From an uncultured Chloroflexia bacterium (GTDB lineage Bacteria; Chloroflexota; Ktedonobacteria; Ktedonobacterales; JADMIN01): 32,000 bases of DNA. The stretch spans positions 690,001 through 722,000 of the forward strand of contig CAVRAI010000015.1 in NCBI GenBank assembly GCA_963718915.1, read 5' to 3'. Within the stretch, counting starts at the first letter, position 1, and each line of letters begins with the position of its first letter. Below the pieces are notes generated by a model that saw only the letters and a program-made list of their open reading frames with translations, ran no database searches and was not told where the DNA came from. Positions 5,334 to 30,879 of this stretch are shown here, one piece after another. The translations under genes and the position numbers were made by a program.

Positions 5334-6359
5334 ATGCCCGGTCTCCCCATTGGTATTCCCGCTGTGCCCGAGGCTATCACTAAGCGCATCTGGGATTTCG
5401 TTGTCCAGGGTATCGCAGATGCTTTCAAGTATCACGACAAAAAGGATATAGCGCGCCGCATCGAGGCTCTTCGCACGAGCCCCAACTTGCCGAGTCTCAT
5501 GACGGATGCTGTTCAGGAGGGGTGGCAGTACTGGCTCACCCACAGCCACGAGCATGCTATTATTGCCGCAGTGAAGCGCGATCTGCAGGATCACCTGCCA
5601 ACTCTTGTTGGTGTTAAACTCCTCGAAGCGCTGCAACGTCCCATTACTCGCCACGATGTGGAGGAGTATCTCGCGACCTGGTTCACAGAATTGCATAGCG
5701 GCGCCACGCTTGGAAAGTGTCGTGACGCCGCTCGCGATCTGCTTGATCGCATCTTACAGGCGACGCTGAGCGCGCCAGCTCTGCAGGATCTTGCTCAAGC
5801 TGTCCTCATGTGGGATGAAGCTCATCGGCGACCTCAACCAACACTTGGGCCTCGAATTGCCAAAGTGCGCGAGTGTGCTCGCGACCGCGCTCGCGCCGAC
5901 GGATATGCATTTGTGTCTTCAGCGCATCTCATGTATGGGCTTGCGAGCATTCAACCGCTCAGTTCCCCTCAGCAGATTCTTGGCACAAGGGGTATGGGGA
6001 TGAGTCCAGAGCAAATCCTCACAGCGATAGGGACTCTTCCACTCAGTGGTCGGCAAGAAGGTGGGCAGCTAAATAGCCCCGTGGAACCTGCGGAATCAGC
6101 GGGCATCAGAACGTTGCTTGGCGAAGCCCAGGCGCGTGCCGCTGAAGAGCATGCGCAGACTGTCGACGATGGCCATCTGCTGCGTGGCATCCTGGTGATT
6201 GTGGCTGACCGCTACTGCACCTGTAGCGGTAGCCTTCGTCTGCTGTTTAATCAGATGAACGTCGATCCGGTCTACTGGGCCAATAAACTCACCCAGGTGT
6301 ATGCCTGGCCCACGATCAACAACAGCATTGGGATGCGGTTGTCGGAATACGGCATCTAG
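5334..6359 (+). CDS. hypothetical protein with C-terminal Clp_N-like (Clp R) double repeat
   Basis: 341-codon ORF with ATG preceded by GAGAAAGG. The C-terminal half has two repeats resembling the Clp N-domain: AKVRECARDRARADGYAFVSSAHLMYGLASIQ...MSPEQILTAI and IRTLLGEAQARAAEEHAQTVDDGHLLRGILVIV...LFNQMNVDPVYWANKL. The N-terminal half is unrecognised. Confidence 0.6.
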   Translation: MPGLPIGIPAVPEAITKRIWDFVVQGIADAFKYHDKKDIARRIEALRTSPNLPSLMTDAVQEGWQYWLTHSHEHAIIAAVKRDLQDHLPTLVGVKLLEALQRPITRHDVEEYLATWFTELHSGATLGKCRDAARDLLDRILQATLSAPALQDLAQAVLMWDEAHRRPQPTLGPRIAKVRECARDRARADGYAFVSSAHLMYGLASIQPLSSPQQILGTRGMGMSPEQILTAIGTLPLSGRQEGGQLNSPVEPAESAGIRTLLGEAQARAAEEHAQTVDDGHLLRGILVIVADRYCTCSGSLRLLFNQMNVDPVYWANKLTQVYAWPTINNSIGMRLSEYGI

Positions 6360-6433: not shown

Positions 6434-8521
6434 ATGACCAACCAGGCTGGCAACGCGGGCACTCAGCCTCACCGCGCCGCGCAAGCCGATATTCCCGAAA
6501 TCGCCATCGGCACGCGCATCACTAACTTTAGCAATTTTGATATCACCGTGTCGGGGCTGGCTTCGGGCGGGATGGGGCTGGTCGTCTGGGGGCCCAACCG
6601 CGGAGGTGGTGGCAATGTGGAGGCCGTCAAACTGCCGCGCCCCGACCGGTTGGCGGCCGCCGATCCCCAACATCGGGCTGCTATCCTGGAGGACTTCGAG
6701 CGCGAGGCGCTCACCTGGTGTCATCTCTGGCGCCATCCCTGTATCGTCACTGCCGATAGCTTGCTGCTGTTGCGCGGACTGGGGGATCTGCCTGCGATCT
6801 TTCTCGAGTATGCGCCCAAAGGTTCGTTGCGTGATTTGCTTCATAAGGTGCATCGTCCAGGCAGCACACAGGCTTCGGGATTAGAGGGAGTCTTCGCCTG
6901 GGGGCAGATGATCGCCGAGGCGCTCGCCGTTATCCATCGGCCCGAGCCTGATCTCGATCGTCCGGAGCCACTGGTGCATTGCGACCTCAAACCCGAGAAC
7001 GTGCTGCTCGATGAGTGGGGCTGGGCGATGCTGACCGACCTGGGGCTGACCCGTGCCCTCGCCTCTCTCGCCGACACCGCGCCCCAGCCATCCGCTGGTA
7101 CCTTACCTGCGTCCGATGGCAGCGGTGGCGCAATGGAATTGAGCGAGTTGAGCGCGGAGCAGCAGGCGCAGGTGGCGCAGATGCGGCGCTTATTGGCCCA
7201 GGCAGGTATCACCGACATCACCCCACCCGCCACACCGACGGCGTCGCCATCTGATGGAGCGCTCTACAGCACGCGTACCATCTGTGTCTCGCCTGCCCTG
7301 CAAGCGGCTCTTACTGCTGCCCTGGCCGCTGCAGGGGACGGTTCGGCACAGTCCGCGCAACGTTCGCTGCCCGCGCTCCCTGCTCTTTCGCCCAGCGCGA
7401 CGGCGGTGATTGCGCGGATGGGCAGCCGTGGGCAGGTGGCGGGCACGCCACCCTATATGCCCCCCGAACAGTGGCTGGGACTGGATGCGGTCGAACCGGC
7501 GAGTGATGTCTATGCGTTGGGGGTGCTGCTCTTCGAGTTGTTCGCCGGGGTGGGGGGACGCGCGAGCTATCCGCACACCCCTGATCCCGTCTTGACACTA
7601 ACGGCCGGGCCGTTCGCCGCGTGGTGCGCCGCGCATGCGGGTGGACCGAGTCGCCGTCTCGCCGATGTAGAGGTGCGCGCGCTGAGCGATGGGCCGCTGG
7701 TGAAGTTAGTCCAGGAGGGGCAGCAGCCACTGGCGGAGGAGGTGCTCGCGGGGTTGGATGCCTTGATTGGCGACTGTCTGGCGGTCTCACCACAGGCGCG
7801 TCCGACGGCGCAGCGGGTGCGGGAGCGGTTAGCGACGCTGGCCGAGCAGGCGCGAGTGAAACCGCTGTCTATTCCAGTGTATCCACGTACCGACGAGAGT
7901 AAGGCAATCTTCTGGGGCAACCTGGGCATCACCTATGGTGAGATGGGACAGCATGAGGAGCAGTTGCGTCTGCTGCGGAAGTCGATTACGCTCACGCCTG
8001 ACAATCCCCAACGGCTTGAGACGTTGGGGATTGCGCTCAACGAGTTAGGACGAGCCGAACGACAATCAGCGCAACAAGCGAGAATAGCGGGCGAATATGC
8101 CCGAGCACAGGCGTTCGAGGCGCAGGCGCGTGCTCATCTGGAGGAGGGTGTGCGCATCTTCCAGGAGGCAGAAGGGCTACTAACCCCTGAGCAACTTGAA
8201 CGTTATTCACATCTGGCGAATTCGACTGCCTACAACCTGGGTGTAGTACTCTGCGATCTGGAACGCTATGCCGAGGCGGTGGCGGCGACCGAACGGGCGC
8301 TAGTTGCTGATCCCAACGATGCCATGTCCTTTCGCCACCTGGCACTCGTCTACTTGCGTTGGGCCGAGGAGGCGGAGACTCCTGCTGCTTTACAGGTGGA
8401 GAGGTTAGAGAAGGCAGAGGCGCAAATGCGGCAAACGCTCGCGATCGCTCCGCACTTCGTTAGCGGGCAGACGTTGCTGGATTCCATCCAGCGCGAGTTG
8501 GCCGCCGCACGCCGCGCATGA
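6434..8521 (+). CDS. Ser/Thr protein kinase (non-RD, HCD/DLG) with activation-segment insertion and C-terminal TPR domain; paralog 1
   Basis: ATG 6 nt after AGGAGGAGG. Kinase motifs: SGGMGLVVWG (Gly loop), AVKLPRP (Lys), DFEREALTW (Glu), HCDLKPENVLL (catalytic loop), LTDLGLTRAL (DFG equivalent), GTPPYMPPEQW (APE equivalent), DVYALGVLLFEL, ARPTA. The TPR-like tail is AIFWGNLGITYGEMGQHEEQLRLLRKSITLTPDNPQ.. plus further repeats. Confidence 0.85.
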   Translation: MTNQAGNAGTQPHRAAQADIPEIAIGTRITNFSNFDITVSGLASGGMGLVVWGPNRGGGGNVEAVKLPRPDRLAAADPQHRAAILEDFEREALTWCHLWRHPCIVTADSLLLLRGLGDLPAIFLEYAPKGSLRDLLHKVHRPGSTQASGLEGVFAWGQMIAEALAVIHRPEPDLDRPEPLVHCDLKPENVLLDEWGWAMLTDLGLTRALASLADTAPQPSAGTLPASDGSGGAMELSELSAEQQAQVAQMRRLLAQAGITDITPPATPTASPSDGALYSTRTICVSPALQAALTAALAAAGDGSAQSAQRSLPALPALSPSATAVIARMGSRGQVAGTPPYMPPEQWLGLDAVEPASDVYALGVLLFELFAGVGGRASYPHTPDPVLTLTAGPFAAWCAAHAGGPSRRLADVEVRALSDGPLVKLVQEGQQPLAEEVLAGLDALIGDCLAVSPQARPTAQRVRERLATLAEQARVKPLSIPVYPRTDESKAIFWGNLGITYGEMGQHEEQLRLLRKSITLTPDNPQRLETLGIALNELGRAERQSAQQARIAGEYARAQAFEAQARAHLEEGVRIFQEAEGLLTPEQLERYSHLANSTAYNLGVVLCDLERYAEAVAATERALVADPNDAMSFRHLALVYLRWAEEAETPAALQVERLEKAEAQMRQTLAIAPHFVSGQTLLDSIQRELAAARRA

Positions 8522-8556: not shown

Positions 8557-8585
8557 TTGAGTTGAGTTGAGTTGAGTTGAGTTGA
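8557..8585. repeat. pentanucleotide tandem repeat (GTTGA), 5 full copies plus a partial
   Basis: ttga-gttga-gttga-gttga-gttga-gttga read directly at 8557-8585. It lies between the stop of kinase paralog 1 (8521) and the ATG at 8606. Confidence 0.9.
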
Positions 8586-8823
8586 CTTGTGCCTGGAGGT
8601 TCAGCATGGACTGGTTTCGCCGTCGTAATGATGAGCCAGAACAATCGCGTCCGGCTCTCGCGTTCAATCTCGCACCGACTCCACCTGCTCCCGTGGATCC
8701 CCCGATCCTTCGGCAGCATCGAAGCAGGGGAAAACCAACGCCACTCCCCCTACTTCAGCTGAGGTCAGCAAGGCCCTCGATGCGTTCATTGAAGCGCCCG
8801 ACTGGGAACTGACCCGCCAGGTA

Positions 8824-9738
8824 TTGGAGCAGCAGCAGGATGTGCTCCTCACGCTCGATGCCTGTCTGGCCCTTATTCGGCGCGTTGGCCACTCATCCAG
8901 CGCCCATAATCGCAGCATACTCAGCACCTGCGCCCGACTTCTGCTCATTGCCTATGATCGCGATATCCCAACCGCCTGGGAGTGGCTGGAGGATCGACGG
9001 CAAGCACGCGCCGCGCTCAACGCTGCCATGAAGGAGTTAGCTGATCTGCCCCCCGAACAGGCTGCCGGTCAGTTCCAGCGCACCTTCGATCAACTCTCGC
9101 CCGCTCAACAGCAACATGCCAACGACATCCTTGCCGAGGCGGCCAACGAAGCGCGTGAAGCGGAAGGCGGCAACGGCAACGGCGATGTACAGCAAAGGAA
9201 TGTGCCAGGACAAGCATCGCAGGATGCCTCCACGTTGGAGGCAGCGGTCAAAGAGATGCTCAGCGCGCGTGATGAAGCCGCGCTTCGTACGGTCATCGAA
9301 CGCCACCAGCAGGAGTTGCTCACCGGGGAAGCCGCGAGCATCCTGCGCTACAATGCCACACACGCGCGGCAAGATACGACACAAGAGCACGGCGAGGAGA
9401 TTGCGCGTCACCTGGAGCAACTCGCCGATCTGCTGGATCGCATACAGGCCGACCGTGAGGCAAAGCACCCCTCAATCCAACGATCTGCGCCCATGCCGAC
9501 GGCCCAGCCGACGCCCATGCATCCCGTGACGCCAGCGAGTTCCTTGGTTGTGCCACCGCCCACCGACCAGCAGCGCCAGTTGGCAGCAATGCTCCTCGCT
9601 CAGACGGACGGTCAACTCGACGAGGCGCTCCGGCGGGGATTGCTCGCCTGGATGGGAAATTCCGGGGTGACGGCGACCCCGGCAGAAATTACTGCTGCGT
9701 ATACCGTCTTCCTTGCAGCCACCGCATCAAGCAACTAG
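8824..9738 (+). CDS. hypothetical alpha-helical protein with an internal repeated motif; the true 5' end is probably upstream (ATG 8606 plus a frameshift near 8699-8703)
   Basis: The open frame runs 8635-9738, and the only in-frame start is TTG 8824. A motif FIEAPDWELTRQVLEQQQDVLLT (8785-8853) straddles that TTG and recurs as MLSARDEAALRTVIERHQQELLT (9256-9324), so coding very likely starts further upstream. ATG 8606 has a GGAGG 6 nt upstream but is in a different frame. Confidence 0.6.
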   Translation: MEQQQDVLLTLDACLALIRRVGHSSSAHNRSILSTCARLLLIAYDRDIPTAWEWLEDRRQARAALNAAMKELADLPPEQAAGQFQRTFDQLSPAQQQHANDILAEAANEAREAEGGNGNGDVQQRNVPGQASQDASTLEAAVKEMLSARDEAALRTVIERHQQELLTGEAASILRYNATHARQDTTQEHGEEIARHLEQLADLLDRIQADREAKHPSIQRSAPMPTAQPTPMHPVTPASSLVVPPPTDQQRQLAAMLLAQTDGQLDEALRRGLLAWMGNSGVTATPAEITAAYTVFLAATASSN

Positions 9739-9758
9739 CAACTAGCAACTAGCAACTA
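9731..9758. repeat. heptanucleotide tandem repeat (GCAACTA) x4 overlapping the stop codon of the preceding ORF
   Basis: gcaacta x4 read directly at 9731-9758. The first TAG (9736-9738) is the stop codon of the 8824-9738 ORF. Confidence 0.9.
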
Positions 9759-9769
9759 GCTATCTCAGG

Positions 9770-9802
9770 CCGAGCGTAGTATGTGGTTGATACTACGCTC
9801 GG
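9770..9802 (+). terminator. perfect 13 bp stem-loop (possible terminator or regulatory hairpin, no U-tract)
   Basis: CCGAGCGTAGTAT (9770-9782), loop GTGGTTG, ATACTACGCTCGG (9790-9802). It lies between the stop at 9738 and the RBS/ATG of the FHA gene at 9826. No T-run follows, so the intrinsic-terminator call is weak. Confidence 0.45.
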
Positions 9803-9825
9803 CTGGTAGAGAAAAGGAGTATCTC

Positions 9826-10482
9826 ATGGCTTTCCGCTCAGACAAGGCACGGCGTTCTTCCAGGAATCCAGCGGCACGCCAGAATGATGACCCATTAACT
9901 CCTCCTGATGATCCTACTGAGTTGCTGCCGGTAGTCAAGCAAGAAGCGCCTCCTCGCTCAAGGCGCAAGACAAAGAAGCGCTCACCGTCCTCAGAGGCAG
10001 CGGGAGAGCCAGTTCCAGAACCTCAAGAGGCGCCAGATCATACGGAACGCGGGGCGCCGTCTATTGAATTACTGAACGGCCCAGATGACGGCACACTTCT
10101 TACACTCACCACGCCATACACGATCATTGGGCGCGAGCCAGCCGCACGAGCGTTGTCTCTGCCGTTGAGCGGTAGCGGTAATGGTGATGCCTCCGGCGCC
10201 GAGGGAGGGGAGATGGGGCAGCGTCAGCATGTTGCGCTGGTCGCTATTCCATCAGACCCAAGACTTTCGCGCACTCACCTGTTGTTGCTGCAACAGGGCG
10301 ATGAATGGTTTATTCGCGATCTCGGTAGCTCCAACGGCACGTTTTTCTCTGCTACTGGTCAGCGAATCTCTGCGGAGACAAATCACCCACTTGCGCCGGG
10401 AGATGTCGTACGGGCTGGGGATACCTATCTGCGCCTGACGTACGCGCCTGCTGAATCACACCCTTCCAGCGAAAATTCCTGA
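9826..10482 (+). CDS. FHA domain-containing protein (phosphothreonine-binding) with a basic, disordered N-terminus
   Basis: ATG 9826 is 7 nt after AAGGAG; the ATG at 9781 offered by the ORF track lies inside the hairpin. The FHA signature is YTIIGRE...RLSRTHLLLLQQGDEWFIRDLGSSNGTFFSATGQRI....LAPGDVVRAGDTYLRL. Confidence 0.8.
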   Translation: MAFRSDKARRSSRNPAARQNDDPLTPPDDPTELLPVVKQEAPPRSRRKTKKRSPSSEAAGEPVPEPQEAPDHTERGAPSIELLNGPDDGTLLTLTTPYTIIGREPAARALSLPLSGSGNGDASGAEGGEMGQRQHVALVAIPSDPRLSRTHLLLLQQGDEWFIRDLGSSNGTFFSATGQRISAETNHPLAPGDVVRAGDTYLRLTYAPAESHPSSENS

Positions 10483-10600: not shown

Positions 10601-12685
10601 ATGACGGATGCTGGTTCACGCGCTACGCAAGCCGGAATACCTGAGATCACGATTGGCACGCGCATCACCAATTACGGAGTTCAGGATATCAGCGTATCCG
10701 GCATGGCTTCGGGAGGGATGGGGCTGGTCGTCTGGGGACCCAACCGTGGTCGTGGGGGCAGAATACAGGCGGTCAAACTGCCCAGACCCGACCGGTTAGC
10801 CAACGCTGATGCACACCATCAGGCTGCGATCCTGGCGGACTTCGAGCGTGAAGCGCTCACCTGGTGTCACCTCTGGCCCCATCCCTGTGTTGTCGCCGCT
10901 GAAAGTCTGCTACGGTTGCCAGGACTGGGGGATCTGCCTGCCATCTTTCTCCAGTATGCGCCCAAAGGCTCGTTGCGCGACCGGCTGAACATCGTCCATC
11001 ATGTGGGCAGTAACCAGGCGCTGGGGCTGCAAGCGGTCTTCGCCTGGGGGCAGATGATTGCGGGGGCGCTGGCCGCCATCCACCAGCCCGACCCAGCGTT
11101 TGAACGTCCAGATCCGCTGGTGCACTGCGACCTCAAACCGGAGAACGTGCTGCTCGATGAGCAGGGCTGGGCGCTGCTGACCGATCTGGGGCTCACCCGC
11201 GCGCTCGCCTCGCTCGCCGATACCACACCGCTCTCCCCCGTCGTGACAGGTGCGCGTGGAGTGATGGACGATGGAGGGAGTCACGCGAGCAGCCTGGGCG
11301 CGTTGAGCGCGGAACAACAGGCGCAGGTGGCGCAGATGCGGCGCTTGTTGGCACAGGCAGGAGGCGGCTTGCCCCCGAACGTCACGGTACCCGCTACACC
11401 CGCACTGCCCGATGGCGTGCTCTATGGCACGCGCACCATCTGTGTCTCGCCCGCGCAGCAAGCGGCACTTGCCAATGAGCTGGCTTCCACGCCAGGCTCG
11501 CCTGCCCAAGTCAGTGCGCCCCAGTTGCCCGCCCTGTCGCCCAGCGCGACGGCGGTGATTGCTCAGATGGGCAGCCGTGGGCATGTGGCGGGCACTCCAC
11601 CATACATGGCGCCCGAACAATGGCTCGGCCTGGATGCGGTGGAACCGGCGAGCGATGTCTATGCGCTGGGGGTGCTGCTCTTCGAGCTGTTTGCTGGGGT
11701 GGGTGGACGTGCGGGCTATCCCCACACACCGAACCCGTTGCTGCTGCTGAAGATGGAACCGTTCGCCGCGTGGTGCGCCGCGCATGCGAGTGGGCCGAGT
11801 CGGCGTCTCTCCGATCCCGAAGTGGCGGCGCTGAGTGATGGGCCACTAGTGAAGCTGTGGCAAGATGGCCAGCAAGCGCTGGCGGAGGAGGTGCTCGCGG
11901 GGTTGGATGCCTTGATTGGCGACTGTCTGGCATTCGCGCCCGCTGCGCGTCCGACGGCGCGGCGGGTGCGGGAGCGGTTAGCGGCGCTGGCCGAGCAGGC
12001 GGGGCTGGATCCGTTGCGCATCGTTGAAAATCCCCGCACTCCCGAGAGCGAAGCGATCTTCTGGGGCAATCTGGGCATCACTTATGGTGAGATGGGGCAA
12101 TACGAAGAGCAGTTGCGTCTGCTGCGGAAGTCGATCACGCTCACACCTGACAATCCTCAACGGCTGGAGACGCTGGGCAATGCTCTAGGCAAGGTGGCTC
12201 AGGTCGAGCAGCACGCGGCAGAGGAGGCTGTTAAGCAGCGAGACCACGCTGGCGCGCAACGTCTCGAAGTGCAGGCACGCGCTCACCGTGAGGAATCAGT
12301 GCGCATCTACCAGGAGGCGGAGGCGCTGCTGACTCCAGAACAGTTGGCGCGCTACCCACATCTGGCTAACTCTATCCCCTATAACCTGGGCGCGACGCTC
12401 GGTGATCTGGGGCGTTACGCCGAGGCGGTAGCGGCTCGTCAGCGCGCGCTGGCCTCTGATCCTAACGATGCCATGTCCTATCGCGGTCTGGCAATCATTT
12501 ACTTCCGTCGGGCTGAGGAGGCGGGAATCTCGCTCGCGGCACGTGTTGAACATCTCGAGCAGGCGGAGGCAAATATGCGGCAAGTGCTCGTAATAGCTCC
12601 CAACTACGTTAATGGGCAGGCGTTGCTGGCTACCATCCAGCGCGAGCTGGCTGCCGCGCGCCATGATGTGAAGCCAACCGAATGA
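10601..12685 (+). CDS. Ser/Thr protein kinase (non-RD) with TPR domain; paralog 2
   Basis: Same architecture and motifs as paralog 1: ASGGMGLVVWG, AVKLPRP, HCDLKPENVLL, LTDLGLTRAL, GTPPYMAPEQW, and TPR tail AIFWGNLGITYGEMGQYEEQLRLL... It ends ..AAARHDVKPTE*. Confidence 0.85.
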   Translation: MTDAGSRATQAGIPEITIGTRITNYGVQDISVSGMASGGMGLVVWGPNRGRGGRIQAVKLPRPDRLANADAHHQAAILADFEREALTWCHLWPHPCVVAAESLLRLPGLGDLPAIFLQYAPKGSLRDRLNIVHHVGSNQALGLQAVFAWGQMIAGALAAIHQPDPAFERPDPLVHCDLKPENVLLDEQGWALLTDLGLTRALASLADTTPLSPVVTGARGVMDDGGSHASSLGALSAEQQAQVAQMRRLLAQAGGGLPPNVTVPATPALPDGVLYGTRTICVSPAQQAALANELASTPGSPAQVSAPQLPALSPSATAVIAQMGSRGHVAGTPPYMAPEQWLGLDAVEPASDVYALGVLLFELFAGVGGRAGYPHTPNPLLLLKMEPFAAWCAAHASGPSRRLSDPEVAALSDGPLVKLWQDGQQALAEEVLAGLDALIGDCLAFAPAARPTARRVRERLAALAEQAGLDPLRIVENPRTPESEAIFWGNLGITYGEMGQYEEQLRLLRKSITLTPDNPQRLETLGNALGKVAQVEQHAAEEAVKQRDHAGAQRLEVQARAHREESVRIYQEAEALLTPEQLARYPHLANSIPYNLGATLGDLGRYAEAVAARQRALASDPNDAMSYRGLAIIYFRRAEEAGISLAARVEHLEQAEANMRQVLVIAPNYVNGQALLATIQRELAAARHDVKPTE

Positions 12686-12736: not shown

Positions 12737-14767
12737 ATGACGGATGCTGGTTCACATAGCGCGCATGTCGGGATACCTGAGATCAAGATAGGCACGCGCA
12801 TTACCAACTTTGGGAGTCACGACATCACGGTGAGCGGGCTGGCCTCGGGCGGGATGGGACTGGTCGCCTGGGGACCCAACCGGGCCCAGGGCGGTCAGAT
12901 GGCGGCGGTCAAGTTGCCGCGCCCCGATCGGTTGGCTACCGCCTCCCGTGAGCAACGCGCTGCTATCCTGGCCGAGTTCGAACAGGAAGCGCTGACCTGG
13001 TGTCATCTCTGGTACCACCCTTGCATCGTCACTGCGGATAGCTTGTTACGGCTCCACGCACTGGGTGGAGTGCCTGCCATTTTCCTCGATTATGCGCCCA
13101 ATGGCTCCTTGCGTGATCTGCTTCATACGGTGCATCGTCCAGGCAGCACAGAGGCTTCGGGATTAGAGGGAGTCTTCGCTTGGGGACAGATGATCGCCGC
13201 CGCCCTCGCCACCATCCACCAGCCCGCTCGTGATCTTGAACGGCCAGATCCGCTGGTCCATTGCGATCTCAAACCGGAGAACGTCCTGCTCAGCGCACAG
13301 GGTTGGGCGATGCTGACCGATTTGGGGCTGACCCGCGCGCTGGCCTCCCTCGCCGAGACCGCGCCGCTCCCGTCTGCCACGGTACTCGCGAGCGGAACAG
13401 CAAGCGACTTGAGCGCGGAGCAGCAGGCGCAGGTGGCGCAGATGCGGCGCTTATTGGCCCAGGCGGGAGTCGCCTTGCCCCCGAACGCGACGGCGCCCGC
13501 TCTTGCCGAGGGAGCGGTCTATGACACCCGCACCATCTATGTCTCGCCCGCGCAGCAAGCCGCTCTCGCACAGGTCGCGTCGCACGTTGCGTCGGATTTG
13601 TCCAATGCGCCCGCTTTCTTGCCCAGCGCGACGGCGGTGATTGCCCAAATGGGCAGTCGCGGACATGTAGCGGGCACCCCGCCCTATATGCCCCCGGAGC
13701 AGTGGTTAGGGCTGGATGCGGTCGAACCGGCGAGTGATGTCTATGCCCTGGGAGTGCTGCTCTTCGAGCTGTTTGCGGGGGTAGGCGGACGCGCGAGCTA
13801 CCCGCACACACCCAATTCTGGGCTGCTGCTGGCGGCTGGGCCGTTCGCCGCGTGGTGCGCCGCGCATGCGAGTGGGCCGAGTCGGCGTCTCTCCGATCCC
13901 GAAGTGGCGGCGCTGAGTGATGGGCCACTAGTGAAGCTGTGGCAAGATGGCCAGCAAGCGCTGGCGGAGGAGGTGCTCGCGGGGTTGGATGCCTTGATTG
14001 GCGACTGTCTGGCATTCGCGCCCGCTGCGCGTCCGACGGCGCAGCGGGTGCGGGAGCGGTTAGCGACGCTTGCCGAGCAGGCGGGCGTGGATTCGCTCTC
14101 TATCCCAGATTTCCCCCGCACTCCTGACGCTGAGGCCACCTTCTGGGGCAACCTGGGCATCGTCTATGGTGAGATGGGGCAGTATGAGGAGAAACTGCGC
14201 CTGCTGCGCAAGTCGGTAGCGCTTACTCCTGATGATCTCCTACGGCGCGAGACGCTGGGCAACGCGCTCAACGAGTTGGGTCGGACTGAGAAGGAATCGG
14301 CGCAAAAAGCGAGAGCCGCGGGAGACCATGGCACAGCGCAGGCGCTTGGAGCGCAGGCGCGCGCGCACCTGGAGGAAGCAGTGCGCACCTTCCAGGAGGC
14401 GGAGGTGGACCTGACTCCCGAACAGTTGGCGCGCTACCCACATTTGGACAACACGATTCCCTATAACCTGGGCGCCGCGCTCTCGGATCTGGGGCGTTAC
14501 GCCGAGGCGGTAGCGGCTCGCCAGCGCGCGCTGGCCACTAATCCCAATGATGCCATGTCCTATCGCGGTCTGGCGCTCGTCTACCTGCGTTGGGTTGAGG
14601 AGGCGGACACCACGCCTGTGGCACGTGTTGAACGGTTGGAGCAGGCGGAGGCGCATGCGCGCCATGTGCTCAAAATTGCCCCGCATTTTGGCGGCGCTCT
14701 GGATCTGCTGGCTACCATCCAGCGCGAGTTGGTTGCCGCGCGCCGAGATGTGAGGCCGACCGAATGA
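12737..14767 (+). CDS. Ser/Thr protein kinase (non-RD) with TPR domain; paralog 3
   Basis: Start set at ATG 12737 (MTDAGSH..) by analogy with paralog 2. The ORF is open from GTG 12719. It carries the same kinase and TPR motifs and ends ..AARRDVRPTE*. Confidence 0.85.
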   Translation: MTDAGSHSAHVGIPEIKIGTRITNFGSHDITVSGLASGGMGLVAWGPNRAQGGQMAAVKLPRPDRLATASREQRAAILAEFEQEALTWCHLWYHPCIVTADSLLRLHALGGVPAIFLDYAPNGSLRDLLHTVHRPGSTEASGLEGVFAWGQMIAAALATIHQPARDLERPDPLVHCDLKPENVLLSAQGWAMLTDLGLTRALASLAETAPLPSATVLASGTASDLSAEQQAQVAQMRRLLAQAGVALPPNATAPALAEGAVYDTRTIYVSPAQQAALAQVASHVASDLSNAPAFLPSATAVIAQMGSRGHVAGTPPYMPPEQWLGLDAVEPASDVYALGVLLFELFAGVGGRASYPHTPNSGLLLAAGPFAAWCAAHASGPSRRLSDPEVAALSDGPLVKLWQDGQQALAEEVLAGLDALIGDCLAFAPAARPTAQRVRERLATLAEQAGVDSLSIPDFPRTPDAEATFWGNLGIVYGEMGQYEEKLRLLRKSVALTPDDLLRRETLGNALNELGRTEKESAQKARAAGDHGTAQALGAQARAHLEEAVRTFQEAEVDLTPEQLARYPHLDNTIPYNLGAALSDLGRYAEAVAARQRALATNPNDAMSYRGLALVYLRWVEEADTTPVARVERLEQAEAHARHVLKIAPHFGGALDLLATIQRELVAARRDVRPTE

Positions 14768-14818: not shown

Positions 14819-15037
14819 ATGACGGATGCTGGTTCACATAGCGCGCATGTCGGGATACCTGAGATCAAAATAGGCACGCGCAACACCAACTTTGGGAGTC
14901 ACGACATTATCGTGAGCGGGATGGTCGGCGAGATGGGTCTGGTCGCCTGGGGACCGAATCGAGCCCAATGCGGCGAAATGCAAGCGGTCATGTTCCTCGT
15001 CCAGATCGTCTGGCCGACTTCGAGCAGGAAGCGCTGA
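14819..15037 (+). pseudogene. truncated, decayed N-terminal remnant of a kinase-TPR paralog
   Basis: MTDAGSHSAHVGIPEIKIGTR.. is near-identical to the paralog 3 N-terminus. The Gly loop is then damaged (GMVGEMGLV). An internal deletion and frameshift remove KLPRPDRL..AAIL. A remnant of LADFEQEALT is visible at about 15019-15049, after which homology ends. Confidence 0.8.
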
Positions 15038-15159
15038 CCTACCTATTATCCGATTATCCGAGGAACACCCGCTCACAGAAGAACACGCGTAAACGCGAGG
15101 CGCCAGCGCGCATACTGGCTCGATTGGTAATGATATAGTGCAGAAGGGAAGTAGCCTTT

Positions 15160-15792
15160 GTGAGTGATTCCGCGTCTGGCTGGCTAGGCCCTGATGAGAA
15201 CCGCACAATAGACGAGATGATCGCTCAGCCTGACTCACCCGGTTGGGCAGACTGCGATCTGTGGATTGAAATGATAGTTGCCGCACTTCTGTCTGACTTG
15301 CAGGAGTCAGACCGAGACGTTATCGCGAACAACGTGAAGCACAAGGTACGTACCGGCCTTCCGGGCTTCCGGCGCCACAGCAAACTAACGACATGGATCT
15401 TCGGCATCCTGAATCACGAGAAGATTGATTTCTACCGGCGAGGTAAGCCCCGGCGAAATGAGGCCTCACTTGAGGCGCTCGAGGAGGAATATGGGCATCT
15501 TGAGTTCATCACTATTGACCACGTCAGTCAACACGAATTCTACCGTGATCTGGCGCGCCGTGTTCTGGAAGCGGCACGCAAGTTTGCCCTGACACGAAAG
15601 GATCCCAAACGAGCGGTTGACATTATTCAGCTTTGGCTCGAGGGGGCCAAGCCAGCGGAAATCGCCGACCTGTTAGGCATTAGGCCGCAAATCGTCTCGA
15701 ATACGCTGTATCTCCTGCGAGGGTATTTGCAGCATTTCGCAGCTGAATGGTTCGGGGAGACTAATTCCCCAGATCCTCCAGACATCGACTGA
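15160..15792 (+). CDS. sigma-70 family RNA polymerase sigma factor (ECF-like)
   Basis: GTG start preceded by GAAGGGA. The region-2-like block is SKLTTWIFGILNHEKIDFYRR and the region-4 HTH-like block is AEIADLLGIRPQIVSNTLYLLRGYL. Confidence 0.7.
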   Translation: MSDSASGWLGPDENRTIDEMIAQPDSPGWADCDLWIEMIVAALLSDLQESDRDVIANNVKHKVRTGLPGFRRHSKLTTWIFGILNHEKIDFYRRGKPRRNEASLEALEEEYGHLEFITIDHVSQHEFYRDLARRVLEAARKFALTRKDPKRAVDIIQLWLEGAKPAEIADLLGIRPQIVSNTLYLLRGYLQHFAAEWFGETNSPDPPDID

Positions 15793-15866
15793 GGAACGAT
15801 ATCCCGTGAGAGCGACTCTGCTCAACGTCTCGATACGTCCGGCATTTCAAGTGATGGAGGCTATCT

Positions 15867-16919
15867 GTGATCCCTACATTCCCGACGCATACCACTGACG
15901 CGGGAAACGAGCACATTCTAGAGTTTCTCGTTGATCTTGTCGTAGGCACATCTGATCGGCCTGATATAGATATAGAGCGTCTCAGCGCTCATCTCGTCGC
16001 ATGCGAACAGTGTCGTGCTGGTCTTGCGCTTCTGCTGAAAGCTCAGGCGGAACGAAGCGATCTCTCGGATACCGACCGAAGCGGCTTTGGCGCGATGTTA
16101 GATAGCATTGCGCGGCTTGTCCATACCACCCCTGTCGCCAATACCGAAGCGCTTGCCGCATTCGCCGAGGAAATGATGATATCGGCGAATGAAGAGTCGG
16201 CACACCAGCGTTTTCCTGTCTTCGCCGCACATCTGGATCGTTGCCAGGAGTGTCGCGAGGAGCTTGCGGGATTCGTGAACCTGCTTGGGCAAGCGCAGGC
16301 GCTAGGCTTCTTTGAAGCGACCCCGATCGCCACAGCTCAAAGTAGCGCTCCCGCTCAGGAACAAGCCGTGACCGATCCACTCTGGCTACCGAGCGGGCAA
16401 GGCATTCTCCGGCTGAGGGAAGAGCTGACTATTCTCGTTGGCAAGCTGACCGTTGCGGTGGTGAGCGCTATACCAGGTATTCGTACCTTCGAGTCTCCGG
16501 TCGAGCCAGCCCTGTTGTCTCGCGAACTGGCGGTTGGTCGTGAAGAACGCCTGATATTTACAATTCGCGCGGCGTCTGATGGGATGCTCAAAACAGCGAA
16601 CTGGCTGCGTGTCAGCCTGGATCTCAGCGCCCGGTATGATCGCCGTTTGAAAGTGACGCTGCATGCAGAATCGGTGACGGCTCTGCAAGATATCCTCCCC
16701 GATCCTGAGCAGTCAGGTGTGCCAGAATCCGGGCTCGCCTGGCGGGTTGAGTTGATCGATGGCGCCACACGCCGCCTCGCCGGACGCGGCGCGACCGATA
16801 CCGCTGGAATCGCTTCGTTTCCGTTGCCAGACCCCGGTCATTATGAGCTGACCATTGCCAGAGGCGCGCAGTCCTGGGAAATTCCGCTGGAGATGCGCTA
16901 CCAGCCTGTGACAGACTAG
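15867..16919 (+). CDS. putative anti-sigma factor with two zf-HC2 (HxxxCxxC) motifs and a C-terminal beta-sandwich-like domain
   Basis: HLVACEQC at 15990-16013 and HLDRCQEC at 16230-16253 both fit the ZAS HxxxCxxC motif. The gene sits immediately downstream of the sigma gene. The C-terminus TDTAGIASFPLPDPGHYELTIARG resembles carboxypeptidase-regulatory/Ig-like folds. The start (GTG 15867) is uncertain. Confidence 0.6.
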   Translation: MIPTFPTHTTDAGNEHILEFLVDLVVGTSDRPDIDIERLSAHLVACEQCRAGLALLLKAQAERSDLSDTDRSGFGAMLDSIARLVHTTPVANTEALAAFAEEMMISANEESAHQRFPVFAAHLDRCQECREELAGFVNLLGQAQALGFFEATPIATAQSSAPAQEQAVTDPLWLPSGQGILRLREELTILVGKLTVAVVSAIPGIRTFESPVEPALLSRELAVGREERLIFTIRAASDGMLKTANWLRVSLDLSARYDRRLKVTLHAESVTALQDILPDPEQSGVPESGLAWRVELIDGATRRLAGRGATDTAGIASFPLPDPGHYELTIARGAQSWEIPLEMRYQPVTD

Positions 16920-26656: not shown

Positions 26657-28732
26657 ATGAGCGACTCTGGTTCGCACGCCGCACAGACCGGGATTCCTGA
26701 GATCACCATTGGCACACGCATCACCAATTACGGAGGTGTCGACATTATCGTGTCGGGGATGGCCTCAGGCGGGATGGGGCTGGTCGCCTGGGGGCCCAAC
26801 CACGCTCGTGGTGGTCAGATGGAGGCGGTCAAACTGCCCAAACCCGACCGATTGGCCGCCGCCTCCCGTGCGCAACGCGCCGCGATTCTGGCGGACTTCG
26901 AGCGCGAGGCGCTGACCTGGTGTCACCTCTGGTATCACCCTTGCATCGTCGCTTCCGAAGGTCTGTTACGATTGAACGCGCTGGGGGATCTGCTTGCCAT
27001 CTTTCTTCAGTATGCGCCTGAAGGCTCGCTGCGCGACCGACTGAACATCGTCCATCATCCAGATAGCACGCAGGTGCTGGGGCTGCAAGCGGTCTTTGCC
27101 TGGGGGCAGATGATCGCCGCTGCGCTGGCCGCCATCCACCAGCCCACTCCTGATCTCGAACGGCCCGAACCACTGGTACACTGTGATCTCAAACCCGAGA
27201 ACGTGCTGCTGAGCGCGAAGGGATGGGCGATGCTCACTGACCTGGGCCTCACCCGCGCGCTCGCCTCCCTCGCCGACCCCGATCCCCAGGCGTCCCCCGT
27301 TGCCACATCCCCGTCTGCTGGCGGCAGCAACGCAAGCAGGATGAGTGGGATGAGTGAGATGGATGGCGCCCATGGGTTGAGCGTAGAACAGCAGGCGCAG
27401 GTGGCGCAGATGCGGCGCTTATTGGCCCAGGCAGGAGTCGCCCTGCCCCCGAACGTGACGGCGCCCGCGGCCCCCACACTGCCGGATGGAGCACTCTACG
27501 GCACGCGCACCATCTGTGTCTCGCCTGCCCAGCAAGCGGCTCTTGCGGCTTCGTTGACATCCCGTGCGGCGATGGATCAGCCCAACGCACCCGCGCTTTC
27601 CCCCAGCGCGACGGCGATGATGGCCCAGATGGGCAGCCGTGGGCCGGTTTCGGGCACCCTGCCTTACATGCCCCCGGAGCAGTGGCTCGGCCTGGATGCG
27701 GTGGAACCGGCGAGCGATGTCTATGCGCTAGGGGTACTGCTCTTCGAGCTCTTCGCTGGCGTTGGTGGGCGTGCGGGCTATCCCCACACACCGGACCCGT
27801 TGCTGGTACTGACGGCAGGACCGTTCGCCGCGTGGTGCGCCGCGCATGCGAGTGGGCCAAGTCGGCGTCTCTCCGATGCAGAGGTGCGCGCGCTGAGTGA
27901 TGGGCCTTTGCTCAAGCTGATGCAGGATGGACAGCAGGCGCAGGCGGACGAGGTGCTCGCGGGGCTGGATGCCTTGATTGGCGACTGTCTGGCATTCGCA
28001 CCCACAGCCCGTCCGACGGCGCAGCGGGTGCGGGACCGGTTAGCGGCGCTGGCCGAGCAGGCAGGCCTGGAGCCACTGACCATCTCCGAACCCACCCGTA
28101 CGGCTGAGAGTGAAGCGATCTTCTGGGGCAATCTGGGTGTCACCTATGGTGAGATGGGCCAGTATGAGGAAAAACTGCGCTTGCTGCGTAAGGCGGTGGA
28201 TCTCATGCCTGACAATCCCCAACGGCGTGAGACGCTGGGCAACGCATTCAACGAGTTGGCCTGGACTGAGCAGAAGGCAGCGCGGGCAGCAGACGCACAG
28301 GGAGACCATGCCAGGACTCAGGCGCTCGATGCGCAGTCGCATGCTCACCTGGAGGAGGCGGTGCGTACCTTCCAGGGTGCGGAGGCGCTGTTGACTCCTG
28401 AGCAATTGGCGCGCTACCCGCATCTCGCGAATTCGATCTCATTCAACCTGGGTGGCGCGTTCGGCGATCTGAGGCGTTACGCCGAGGCGATAGTGGCGAC
28501 TGAACGGGCGCTGGCTGCCGATCCCAACGATGCCATGTCCTATCGTCAGTTGGCGCTGATCTACCTCCGCTGGTCGCGCGTGGACGGAACTCCCGCTACC
28601 ACACAGGTTGAGCGGTTAGAACAGTCCGAGGCGAACATGCGCCATGTGCTCGAAATTGCCCCTTATTATGGTAGTGGGCAGGAGTTGCTTGAGACCATCC
28701 AGCGCGAACTGGCCGAGGCACGCCGTCGATAA
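26657..28732 (+). CDS. Ser/Thr protein kinase (non-RD) with TPR domain; paralog 6
   Basis: Start set at ATG 26657 (MSDSGSHAAQTGIPEITIG..), preceded by AAAGGGGAG. The upstream part of the 26474 ORF overlaps the pseudogene tail and is not homologous to any paralog N-terminus. It has the full kinase and TPR motif set. Confidence 0.85.
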   Translation: MSDSGSHAAQTGIPEITIGTRITNYGGVDIIVSGMASGGMGLVAWGPNHARGGQMEAVKLPKPDRLAAASRAQRAAILADFEREALTWCHLWYHPCIVASEGLLRLNALGDLLAIFLQYAPEGSLRDRLNIVHHPDSTQVLGLQAVFAWGQMIAAALAAIHQPTPDLERPEPLVHCDLKPENVLLSAKGWAMLTDLGLTRALASLADPDPQASPVATSPSAGGSNASRMSGMSEMDGAHGLSVEQQAQVAQMRRLLAQAGVALPPNVTAPAAPTLPDGALYGTRTICVSPAQQAALAASLTSRAAMDQPNAPALSPSATAMMAQMGSRGPVSGTLPYMPPEQWLGLDAVEPASDVYALGVLLFELFAGVGGRAGYPHTPDPLLVLTAGPFAAWCAAHASGPSRRLSDAEVRALSDGPLLKLMQDGQQAQADEVLAGLDALIGDCLAFAPTARPTAQRVRDRLAALAEQAGLEPLTISEPTRTAESEAIFWGNLGVTYGEMGQYEEKLRLLRKAVDLMPDNPQRRETLGNAFNELAWTEQKAARAADAQGDHARTQALDAQSHAHLEEAVRTFQGAEALLTPEQLARYPHLANSISFNLGGAFGDLRRYAEAIVATERALAADPNDAMSYRQLALIYLRWSRVDGTPATTQVERLEQSEANMRHVLEIAPYYGSGQELLETIQRELAEARRR

Positions 28733-28763
28733 GCGCGATTTCGAACGCGAGACAGACGACAGA

Positions 28764-28798
28764 CGAGAGACGAGAGACGAGAGACGAGAGACGAGAGA
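28764..28798. repeat. heptanucleotide tandem repeat (CGAGAGA) x5 in the leader of kinase paralog 7
   Basis: Five perfect copies read directly at 28764-28798, with degenerate copies from about 28748. The equivalent leaders of paralogs 5 and 6 carry only single degenerate GA-rich versions. Confidence 0.9.
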
Positions 28799-28820: not shown

Positions 28821-30879
28821 ATGAGCGACTCTGGTTCGCACGCCGCACACAGCGAGTTACCCGAGATCACCATTGGCACGCGCATCACCAACTTTGGCGC
28901 TTACGATATTACGGTGTAGTGGGATGGCCTCGGGCGGGATGGGGCTGGTCGCCTGGGGGCCCAACCGCGCTCGTGGGGGCCAGATGCTAGCTGTCAAACT
29001 GCCTAAACCCGATCGGTTGGCCGCCGCCGACCCGAAGAAGCGCGCCGCGATCCTGGCGGACTTTGAGCAAGAGGCGCTGACCTGGTGTCACCTCTGGGCG
29101 CATCCCTGTATCATCTCCGCTGATAGCTTGCTGCGGTTGCGCGCGCTGGGGGATCTGCCTGCTATCTTTCTCGAGTATGCGTCCGAAGGCTCGTTGCGCG
29201 ACCGACTGAACATCGTCCATCATCCAGATAGCACGCAGGTACTGGGACTGGAAGCGGTCTTCACCTGGGGGCAGATGATCGCCGTGGCGCTGGCCGCCAT
29301 TCACCAGCCCGCTCCTGATCTTGAACGGCCTGAACCGCTGGTACATTGCGACCTCAAACCGGAGAATGTGCTAGTCGATGCCCAGGGCTGGGCGATGCTG
29401 ACCGATCTGGGCCTCACCCGCGCGCTCGCCTCTCTCGCTTCTTTCGACGAGACCGCGTCCCAGGCGCCCACCGTTGCCTCACCCGCGCTCGATAGTAGCA
29501 ATGGCGCGAATGGAATAACTGGGATGACTGGCGCGGGCGCATTAACTGCGGAACAGCAGGCGCAGGTGGCGCAGATGCGGCGCTTATTGGCCCAGGCGGG
29601 AGTCGCCCTGCCCCCGAACGCGACGGCGCCCGCAGCCCCCACACTGCCCGATGGAGCACTCTACGGCACGCGCACCATCTGTGTCTCGCCCGCGCAGCAA
29701 GCGGCTCTTGTGCACGTCTCGTCTGCGCTCCCCGCCTTGCCGCCCACTGCAACCGCAGTGATTGCCCGGATGGGCAGCCGTGGGCAGGTGGCGGGCACGC
29801 CACAGTACATGCCCCCCGAACAGTGGCTCGGGTTGGAGGCGGTGGAACCGGCGAGCGATGTCTATGCGCTGGGGGTGCTGCTCTTCGAGTTCTTCGCTGG
29901 GGTGGGAGGGCGCTCAGGCTATCCGCACACACCAGACCCGTTGCTCGTTTTGACAGTTGGGCCGTTCGCCGCGTGGTGCGCCGCGCATGCGAGTGGGCCG
30001 AGTCGGCGTCTCTCCGCTCCCGAAGTGGCGGCGCTGAGTGATGGGCCGTTGGTGAAGCTGCGACAAGACGGGCAGCAGGCGCTGGCGGAGGAGGTGCTCG
30101 CGGGGTTGGATGCCTTGATTGGCGACTGTCTGGCATTCGCGCCCACGGCGCGCCCGACGGCGCAGCGGGTGCGGGAGCGGTTAGCGGCGCTGGCCGAGCA
30201 GGCAGGCCTGGAGCCACTGACTATCCCGGTGTATCCACATACCGACGAGAGTAAGGCAATCTTCTGGGGCAACCTGGGCATCACCTATGGTGAGATGGGG
30301 CAGCATGAGGAGCAGTTGCGCCTGCTGCGGAAGTCGATCACGCTCACGCCTGACAATCCCCAACGGCTTGAGACGCTGGGCAATGCTCTGGGCAAGGTGG
30401 CTCAGGTCGAGCAGCACGCGGCAGAGGAGGCTGTTAAGCAAGGAGACCATGCCAGGGCGCAGGCGCTTGCTGCACAGGCACGCTCACGCCTGGAGGAGGC
30501 GGTGGGCGTTTTCCAGGAGGCGGAGGCGCTGCTGACCCCGGAATGGCTGGCGCGCTACTCGCATCTCGCGAAGTCGATCCCATTCAATCTGGGCGCCGCG
30601 CTCGGTGATCTGCAACGCTATGCCGAATCTTTGGATGCCACTCGACGCGGGCTGGAGGTCGATCTGACCGATGCCATGTCGTATCGCCAATTGGGAGTAC
30701 TTTACTGGCGCTGGTCGCGCGTGGACGGAACTCCCGCTGCCACACAGGTTGAGCGGTTGGAACAGTCCGAGGCGCATATTCAGCAGGCGCTTGAGATTGC
30801 CCCCCTCTACGGCGGTGGGCAAGAGTTACTCGCCTTCATCCAGCGTGAATTGGCCACAGCACGGCATAATCTCGAGTAA
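28821..30879 (+). pseudogene. kinase-TPR paralog 7 with a single N-terminal frameshift and in-frame TAG; otherwise intact
   Basis: ATG 28821 (MSDSGSHAAHSELPEITIGTRITNFGAYDITV) runs into TAG 28917-28919. Here gtgtagtgggatgg replaces the gtgtcggggatgg of paralog 6, a 1-nt insertion. The remaining roughly 650 codons are open in frame 1 with all kinase and TPR motifs. A restart at ATG 28924 (MASGGMGLV..) is conceivable. Confidence 0.7.

Follow-up and report, generated by a model that had tools for sequence, protein, structure and literature searches.

How does a bacterial protein kinase work when more than one hundred residues are inserted at a site that usually regulates its activity? This question is raised by a stretch of 32,000 nucleotides (nt) from an uncultured bacterium of the Chloroflexota (contig CAVRAI010000015.1, positions 690,001 to 722,000; hereafter the window), which has a GC content of about 62% and carries seven tandem paralogs (K1–K7) of one kinase gene. 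Bacterial Hanks kinases are usually modelled on PknB, in which phosphorylation of a loop of about 30 residues switches the enzyme on. All seven copies in the window have an insertion of 100–130 residues in the activation loop, or about 115 amino acids (aa) by comparison with PknB. An earlier note had described it as an alternation of invariant and hypervariable cassettes in every paralog, and had proposed that the variable stretches act as paralog-specific phospho-acceptor, docking or specificity elements on a scaffold of conserved helices. Our analysis indicates that this is a real, statistically unambiguous and previously undescribed family-specific activation-segment insertion, which most likely has a regulatory role via its conserved blocks.

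Results

An oversized activation segment in catalytically complete kinases

The products of K1–K7 are soluble proteins of about 690 aa each, in which Pfam recognises a Pkinase domain and C-terminal TPR repeats. For PF00069, K1 scores 63.3 bits and K2 61.0 bits against a curated cut-off of 31.7, and the match of K1 comes in two stretches parted by the insert. TPR families match aa 493–643 of K1, and helical repeats cover aa 487–694 in its AlphaFold2 (AF2) model. This model is bilobal; Foldseek returned PknB (5u94) as the best solved match with a template modelling (TM) score of 0.79 and PknA with 0.71, and the nearest folds are of the PknB, IRAK and TGF-beta-receptor types. The catalytic set of K1 is complete (G45/G46/G48, K66, E91, D184, N189, D202 and E345). 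In a 36-sequence alignment of the family, K186, P187, N189, G204 and E345 are invariant and G45/G46/G48, K66, E91, D184 and D202 nearly so. Because all catalytic residues are present, K1–K7 are predicted from sequence to be active kinases. Their catalytic loop reads HCD, hence they are non-RD kinases without the Arg that precedes the catalytic Asp in RD kinases (HRD), and their Mg loop is DLG instead of DFG. All long-insert relatives likewise carry HCD or HAD, and HRD occurs only in a short-loop DFG clade of the family.

In K1 (6434–8521, plus strand, as are all kinase features given here; 695 aa) the activation segment (7037–7468) runs from the DLG Asp codon 202 (nt 7037) to the PPE Glu codon 345 (nt 7466–7468), 143 residues apart. 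It measures 144 aa in K2 (gene 10601–12685, segment 11183–11617), 126 aa in K3 (12737–14767 and 13319–13699), 153 aa in K4 (22375–24435 and 22933–23394), 146 aa in K6 (26657–28732 and 27239–27679) and 138 aa in K7 (28821–30879 and 29404–29820); in K5 (about 24498–26590, segment 25080–25531) it is broken by frameshifts in this assembly, the first of them at 25190 in the variable patch V1 described below. The earlier note's counts of 143 and 144 residues for K1 and K2 are exact. Among fifty-odd unrelated bacterial kinases from the same search, the segment measures 24–40 residues, mostly 27–33.

The insert is placed between DLGLTRALASLA and GSRGxVAGTPPYMPPE. By sequence, DLGLTRALA of K1 aligns to DFGIARAIA of PknB, and G-S-R-G-x-V-A-G-T-P-P-Y-M-P-P-E corresponds to the phospho-acceptor and P+1 region of PknB (DFGIARAIADSGNSVTQTAAVIGTAQYLSPE). 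S331 of K1 stands 7 residues ahead of the GT Thr, at the position of PknB T171 and T173, which stand 8 and 6 residues ahead of theirs. The correspondence in sequence and fold with PknB therefore places the insert between the Mg-binding loop and the canonical phospho-acceptor.

Fixed blocks and variable patches

Blocks and patches were defined on the paralog alignment, and identities are given as mean pairwise aa identity, each with the ratio of nonsynonymous to synonymous substitutions (dN/dS). The insert opens with patch V1 (7073–7147; K1 aa 214–238), which is rich in Ser, Thr, Gly and Ala, spans 18–34 aa across paralogs and has an identity of 0.32 (dN/dS 0.57). Block C1 (7148–7207; aa 239–258, 20 aa) is an invariant amphipathic helix, LSAEQQAQVAQMRRLLAQAG, with an identity of 0.97 and a dN/dS of 0.04. 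It is followed by the Pro/Ala/Thr-rich patch V2 (7208–7261; 16–24 aa across paralogs; identity 0.60, dN/dS 0.36) and by block C2 (7262–7312; aa 277–293, 17 aa), which reads LYSTRTICVSPALQAAL and is predicted to form a helix, a strand and a helix (identity 0.83, dN/dS 0.21). Patch V3 (7313–7384), rich in Ala, Ser and Pro, spans 9–27 aa across paralogs (identity 0.28, dN/dS 0.36), and block C3 (7385–7474; aa 318–347, 30 aa) comprises the helix LSPSATAVIA, the phospho-acceptor position within G-S-R-G and the P+1 loop VAGTPPYMPPEQW (identity 0.85, dN/dS 0.09). Block lengths are fixed in all copies at 20, 17 and 30 aa, and patch lengths vary.

This arrangement agrees with the earlier note, whose boundaries for three near-invariant blocks and three Ser/Thr/Pro/Ala/Gly-rich stretches lie within a few bases of ours, and the variability is indeed concentrated rather than evenly spread. 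The least conserved 15-column windows of the whole protein alignment fall in V3 (the lowest), V1 and V2, and 64 of the 72 internal gap columns lie inside the patches, which make up 14% of the columns (binomial p about 6e-46). Ser, Thr, Pro, Ala and Gly account for 64.5% of the patches versus 38.3% elsewhere, Ser and Thr for 20.8% versus 8.8%, and basic residues for 1.9% versus 9.0% in the rest. Tandem Repeats Finder detected no tandem repeats inside any of the activation segments, and we rejected repeat slippage as the origin of the patch variation.

Block C2 carries T280-R-T-I283, a conserved T-x-x-[ILV] motif of the type bound by FHA domains; it is the only conserved motif of this type and lies outside the patches, although pT-x-x-[ILV] is in itself a low-information motif. 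The aligned position across the non-RD clade of the family reads TRTI, TRSV, TRTL, THTL, TRTV, TRYV or TRRL.

The fourth least conserved window lies outside the activation segment, in a helical hairpin of the TPR domain (8030–8137; K1 aa 533–568). Its identity is only about 0.29–0.53, yet AF2 predicts it with a local distance difference test score (pLDDT) of 97–98. As a site where each paralog might recognise its own ligand, the hairpin is a more conventional candidate than the patches of the activation segment.

Predicted structure of the insert

AF2 was run on full-length K1 with the 36-sequence family alignment and a second time on the kinase domain alone, with pLDDT and secondary structure as output. 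The full-length model reached a pLDDT of 86.9 and a predicted TM score (pTM) of 0.85. Within the insert, residues 217–239 (V1) and 258–273 (V2) have a pLDDT below 50 and are predicted to be disordered, and V3 lies at 65–78. The C1 helix (241–256) reaches 52–55 in the full-length run and 63–70 in the kinase domain alone. C2 is predicted as a helix (274–280), a strand (283–285) and a second helix (287–301), with a pLDDT of 85–86 over residues 281–300 and about 60 in the first helix, and C3 as a helix (320–327) that runs into the P+1 loop, with a pLDDT of 90–96 in the full-length model. Most of C2 and C3 has a pLDDT of 84–94 with or without the TPR domain (84–87 in C2), with 60–78 where each block begins. 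The well-predicted parts of the insert are therefore independent of that domain, and presumably they pack against the kinase domain or one another. The predicted helices and strand, together with the purifying selection on the blocks described below, bear out the proposal that the conserved helices form a structural scaffold.

Selection, strain comparison and gene conversion

Selection was assessed by the Nei–Gojobori method on the codon alignment of the paralogs. Pairwise ratios of nonsynonymous to synonymous differences per site (pN/pS) are 0.33–0.63 in the patches, 0.07–0.24 in the blocks and about 0.3 in the rest of the gene, and exceed 1 in no region or paralog pair. Positive selection for diversity in the patches thus finds no support, in a test that is weak because synonymous divergence in V1 and V3 is almost saturated and the model does not allow for gene conversion; the patch values indicate relaxed constraint instead. 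In the blocks, synonymous divergence (pS) ranges from 0.35 to 0.60, and K2 and the orthologue of K5 differ there with a pS of 0.60 and a pN of 0.04. Because synonymous sites have diverged while the protein sequence was kept, the invariance of the blocks reflects purifying selection and not merely recent homogenisation.

A metagenome contig (L081) that is 96–99% identical over 17 kb represents a sister strain. The activation segments of the window and their orthologues in this strain are 100% (K4, at the nt level), 99.8% (K6), 99.0% (K7) and 98.2% (K2) identical, the same as the gene-wide identity. The patches therefore represent old differences between paralogs, not ongoing hypervariation, and the variation between close strains that programmed hypervariation would bring is lacking at these sites. 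The term 'hypervariable' thus fits the comparison between paralogs, where patch identities are 0.28–0.60, but not that between strains. A mechanism of the diversity-generating retroelement type is unlikely, since the list of open reading frames (ORFs) of the window contains no reverse transcriptase, the variation includes indels and the orthologues are unchanged.

The alternating pattern is in frame in six of the seven copies; K5, for which the earlier note had also claimed it, is frameshifted within V1 in this assembly and intact in the sister strain. Compared with its intact orthologue (L081 12124–14220), K5 shows eight frameshifting indel events of 1–2 nt each, at 25190, 25396, 25621-2, 25855, 25967, 26137, 26148 and 26356. 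K7 has a 1-nt insertion, an extra T near 28917, close to its 5′ end, which makes an in-frame stop. Scattered 1-nt indels are also present in other genes of the sister-strain contig, and the frameshifts in K5 and K7 may be assembly consensus errors rather than marks of true pseudogenes. ORFs antisense to the inserts (e.g. 7311–7793, minus strand) differ in length from copy to copy, and we discarded them as a usual by-product of coding sequence with 65–68% GC.

The kinase genes are mosaic: the nearest paralog changes every few hundred bases, with tracts of 96–100% nt identity, which indicates frequent gene conversion between the tandem copies. K2 and K3 match exactly over 202 nt (11759–11960 and 13841–14042), further matched tracts link 7888–7947 to 30240–30299 and 25623–25712 to 27769–27858, and similar tracts connect K1 with K7 and K2 with K7 in the TPR region and K5 with K6 in the C-lobe. 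K6 resembles K7 across C1, V2 and C2, and V2 is nearly identical in these two copies through a conversion tract. Apart from the K2/K5 pair, no two copies share V1 or V3. Since conversion homogenises the flanks of V1 and V3, it has partly sharpened the contrast between blocks and patches.

K3 lacks an orthologue in the sister strain (L081 1–2645), where K2 leads almost directly to a sigma-like gene, and in the window an N-terminal kinase fragment of 88 codons (14819–15042) follows K3. Together they look like a change in copy number through unequal recombination of paralogs. Short repeats occur in leaders and intergenic regions: the heptanucleotide AGACGAG about 25 nt upstream of the K7 start codon is present in about 6 copies in the window (28754–28798) and about 9–10 in the sister strain (L081 about 16350–16435), (TTGAG)x6.6 lies at 8557–8589, (AGCAACT)x4.4 at 9730–9760 just upstream of the FHA gene, and GATGCTGGAA repeats are duplicated after K2 and K3. 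Slipped-strand changes in the length of these leader and intergenic repeats could possibly affect expression.

Distribution of the insert in the kinase-TPR family

About 40 relatives were found by word-indexed search, all from metagenomes or metagenome-assembled genomes (MAGs), and the homologues that carry source names belong to the Ktedonobacterales (Chloroflexota). The length of the activation segment is graded across this family: it measures 33–48 aa in pseudokinase-like members with HGN, 43–96 aa in the HRD/DFG clade and 51–153 aa in the non-RD clade with HCD or HAD and DLG, to which the window belongs; an independent paralog array has segments of 56–96 aa. Members of the non-RD clade with longer inserts still keep three motifs at an identity of only 42–49%: the helix [ED]xQAx[IV]AxxRxxLxxAG (the C1 homologue, which appears in relatives as QARIARxRAALIQAG and HQAEVARLRAILQ), T[RH][TS][ILV]x[IV]xP, whose Thr has Ile, Leu or Val at +3 throughout the non-RD clade, and G[ST]RGxVAG[ST]xxYM[AP]PEQW. 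A helix of the C1 type is first seen in members with a segment of about 84 aa (P0017), and two further elements, an additional helix behind C2 and the C3a helix, occur only in the subfamily of the window. From these graded lengths and the order in which motifs and helices appear, the insert grew stepwise from 33 to 153 aa. Two short-loop relatives, P0037 (L088 5517–6995) and P0039 (L087 10001–11437), have H-G-N instead of H-x-D and are probably pseudokinases within the kinase-TPR family.

A profile of the insert alone matched 5 of 1.84 billion representative proteins, all of the same subfamily, and the insert is thus not, as the earlier note had considered, a widely shared element of known role in unrelated kinases. 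Metagenome contigs scanned with C1-derived patterns gave no confirmed relatives, and genome contigs scanned with generic kinase motifs of the family alignment gave only distant kinases among the matches listed. As far as its sequence can be traced, the insert occurs solely in one small family of soluble kinase-TPR proteins from soil bacteria of the Ktedonobacteria type. Within the window, BLASTP and a hidden Markov model of the insert found nothing better than an E-value of about 0.2–0.8 in any other protein. At these values, we rejected likenesses of C1 and C2 seen by eye to the ORF of unassigned function at 8824–9738 (DQQRQLAAMLLAQ, LSPAQQQ) and to a Clp_N repeat motif (ITPRLHRALSAALA, ILGTRGMGMSPEQIL) as chance resemblances in Q/A-rich sequence.

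Gene context

Other genes are interspersed with the kinase genes or adjoin them. A Clp_N-like protein of 341 aa (5334–6359, plus strand) is encoded directly 5′ of K1, and an FHA-domain protein (9781–10482, plus strand; Pfam FHA, 45.9 bits) between K1 and K2. The centre of the array is occupied by a gene for a CHAT (caspase-like) protease protein (16959–19805, plus strand; Pfam CHAT, 74 bits), followed by one for a ClpB/ClpA-like double AAA+ ATPase (19862–22282, plus strand). Between the first kinase genes and the CHAT gene lies a pair of ECF-sigma-like and anti-sigma-like genes (15160–16919); the sigma-like gene is divergent and stays under curated cut-offs, and its 350-aa partner has a weak match to an anti-sigma factor (RsrA-type zinc motif). 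This pair may provide a transcriptional output of the cluster.

In a distant MAG of the Ktedonobacterales (L085/L086), three kinase-TPR genes, a CHAT gene, a ClpB-like ATPase gene and two more kinase-TPR genes follow a layout like that of the window. The CHAT–ClpB pair spans 16959–22282 in the window, 3905–9111 in L085 and 5231–10437 in L086, and the CHAT proteins are 30% identical to that of the window. This arrangement suggests a conserved multi-gene system in which CHAT and ClpB-like genes are flanked by kinase-TPR paralogs. Clp_N-like proteins of about 330–340 aa adjoin kinases of the family in three or four independent loci, those of short-loop members among them (window 5334–6359; L082 11980–12975, 37% identity, beside P0017; L088 4426–5418, beside P0037), and a read-through fragment (P0025) also links such a protein to the family. 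Among the neighbours inspected, the Clp_N-like gene accompanies the family in the largest number of loci. An FHA gene was encountered in the window and the sister strain alone, and none was seen in L082, L085/L086 or L088. Its product retains the phospho-Thr pocket residues (GR, SRTH, NGT) and is a possible reader of phospho-Thr on the kinases. Because the partners predate the long insert, co-occurrence assigns none of them to it.

Distant members of the family in L082 (1–9000) and L083 (1–9400 and 18848–20569) lie amid integrase, transposase, DUF1998/MZB-helicase, HEPN/DUF499 and STAND-NTPase genes, surroundings that by gene content are defence-island-like. PADLOC matches to mad6, PD-T4-6 and MkoA in the window are generic kinase-domain matches split by the insert, and we rejected them as signs of membership in a defence system.

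Discussion

A proposed tethered regulatory module

Our analysis favours, with a probability of roughly 60%, a lineage-specific regulatory insertion of a soluble, non-RD kinase-TPR family, in which conserved gating or docking elements are held on flexible tethers under relaxed constraint. We infer that the conserved elements C1–C3 do the work. By analogy with the eukaryotic kinase NDR1, C2 and C3 would form a small sub-structure that adjoins the substrate and P+1 groove and serves to gate it or to shape it. No part of the protein is under tighter constraint than C1, which AF2 nevertheless positions poorly between disordered flanks. C1 may act as a tethered helix that recognises either a partner shared by every paralog or an adjacent kinase-TPR molecule. 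The likeliest candidates for regulatory phospho-sites are T280 (in pT-x-x-I) and S331. The variable patches would mainly be flexible tethers whose differences between paralogs are largely drift and not a specificity code; with constraint relaxed, they gather both substitutions and indels, and the gene conversion that keeps the remainder of the paralogs alike has mostly passed them by.

Several points weigh against this reading. The proposed contacts between the three blocks and the substrate groove or helix alpha-C are conjectural, and the alignments given to AF2 are shallow (36–39 sequences). The roles of all members of the family are predicted. Patch pN/pS stays below 1 and the patches maintain a composition rich in Ser and Thr and poor in basic residues, which could point to some function such as multi-site phosphorylation. 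Moreover, V1 and V3 are distinct in every copy but the K2/K5 pair despite frequent conversion elsewhere, and selection could be keeping the paralogs distinct.

Comparison with known kinases

Big insertions between the DFG or DFD motif and APE are known from plant AGCVIII kinases and Greatwall/MASTL, where they have regulatory or localisation roles; these kinases are eukaryotic and unrelated in sequence, and are not known to show a three-block pattern on disordered tethers. With PknB and PknA, K1 shares the GGMG-V G-loop, Lys66, Glu91 in FxREA, Asp184/Asn189, Asp202, the GT-x-x-Y-M-x-P-E P+1 loop and S331 at the place of the PknB T171/T173 phospho-sites. The window kinases differ from both in being non-RD (HCD) with a DLG Mg loop and an activation segment of 126–153 aa instead of about 30, and in being soluble proteins with a C-terminal TPR domain and without a transmembrane or PASTA region. 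PknG, like K1, is a soluble kinase followed by a TPR domain, and PknG structures are among the fold matches of K1; PknG acts via the FHA-domain substrate GarA/OdhI (PMC8546545). However, its TM score to K1 is only 0.20–0.29, K1 has no Pfam match to a rubredoxin-type N-terminal domain, and PknG has a short activation loop and is not known to occur in paralog arrays.

The mechanistic model that we adopt is that of NDR1, in which an atypically long activation segment is auto-inhibitory: it prevents substrates from binding and keeps helix alpha-C in a non-productive position (PMC6087429). NDR1/LATS likewise carry their insertion between subdomains VII and VIII (from DFG to the phospho-acceptor and P+1 loop). 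These are, however, eukaryotic AGC kinases with a hydrophobic motif, a MOB-binding N-terminus and an insert of about 30–60 aa that is rich in basic residues, whereas the window insert is twice as long, has only 1.9% basic residues in its patches, and shows neither AGC features nor a sequence relationship. In bacteria, ActPs2 pseudokinases carry a family-specific activation-loop insertion of about 200 residues, according to a preprint atlas (10.1101/2025.01.12.632604), and big insertions at this site are therefore not unprecedented. ActPs2 proteins are actinobacterial pseudokinases without the DFG Asp, whereas the window kinases keep D202 and all catalytic residues and belong to Ktedonobacteria-type Chloroflexota.

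Alternative explanations

The proposal of the earlier note was that the patches are paralog-specific phospho-acceptor or docking surfaces, for instance for the FHA protein, that set the specificity for partners or substrates, with the helices only as scaffold. Some observations fit this proposal: the patches are rich in Ser and Thr, an FHA protein with an intact phospho-Thr pocket is encoded between K1 and K2, patch pN/pS exceeds that of the rest of the gene, and V1 and V3, where the genes diverge most, stay unshared except in K2/K5 despite pervasive gene conversion. The remaining evidence does not support a specificity role of the patches. Their pN/pS of 0.33–0.63 never exceeds 1, V1 and V2 have a pLDDT below 50, their lengths vary, and they are the same in the orthologues of two strains. 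Docking of the FHA protein via the patches finds no support either, since the conserved T-x-x-[ILV] motif lies outside them in C2 and the FHA gene is absent from the related clusters inspected. In addition, phosphorylation of the activation loop is generally held to be less central to the activation of non-RD kinases. A counter-example to that general view has been described (PMC8463890). We consider this proposal unlikely, although the Ser/Thr-rich patches may still be phosphorylated.

The insert might also be a tolerated, essentially functionless expansion of a surface loop whose blocks are kept only so that they pack harmlessly on the C-lobe. The stepwise and haphazard lengths in the family (including 56–96 aa in an independent array), the low-complexity composition and the predicted disorder would be expected from such an expansion. 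It is harder to see why C1 should then be the most constrained stretch of all, with 97% identity and a dN/dS of 0.04, although it is flanked by disorder and not confidently packed, or why the blocks persist among relatives of 42–49% overall identity. The insert, moreover, sits at a key regulatory site of the kinase fold. We regard this explanation as doubtful, with low odds.

We also considered a recombination system in which the blocks serve as homology anchors that shuffle the variable cassettes, similar to programmed antigenic-type variation. Mosaic genes with tracts of 96–100% nt identity that switch partner, the exact 202-nt match between K2 and K3, the V2 common to K6 and K7, and the presence of K3 in the window strain and its absence from the sister strain all recall such a system. 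However, it is the C-lobe and the TPR domain that hold the longest conversion tracts, the tracts are not organised around the blocks, the blocks with a pS of 0.35–0.60 would be poor DNA anchors, V1 and V3 are unshuffled, and orthologues are unchanged between strains; we therefore rejected cassette shuffling, which appears very improbable. An artefact, whether from misassembly, from a region of pseudogenes or from non-coding or mobile DNA inserted in the kinase genes, is hardly credible. Despite the frameshifts in K5 and K7 and the scattered 1-nt indels in both assemblies, six copies and the intact orthologue of K5 carry the insert in frame, and the insert is under purifying selection and is present in independent metagenomes of several sources.

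Implications

The kinases of the window would represent catalytically complete non-RD bacterial kinases whose regulatory site holds a structured module, more than 100 residues in size and flexibly tethered. By analogy with NDR1, the insert points to a control logic different from that of PknB, namely steric gating or partner docking, and the C1 helix, T280 and S331 are clear targets for experiments. Our results also call for caution in reading such patterns, as an alternation of conserved and variable segments can arise from structured elements and disordered linkers, sharpened by gene conversion, without diversifying selection.

Beyond the insert, the family marks a conserved gene cluster, with kinase-TPR arrays around CHAT and ClpB-like genes, in a phylum with complex multicellular development. 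A far-reaching and rather doubtful idea is that the kinase-TPR arrays, the CHAT protein, the ClpB-like unfoldase and the Clp_N-like protein as adaptor make up a hitherto undescribed system of filamentous Ktedonobacteria that serves in conflict, immunity or cell fate, in which each kinase would be a separate sensor individualised by its patches and TPR hairpin, and C1 would couple all of them to the protease/unfoldase effector. If true, such a system would be a bacterial analogue of the repertoires of non-RD kinase receptors in eukaryotic innate immunity. The kinase-TPR/CHAT/ClpB-like cluster may be a more rewarding target than the insert itself.

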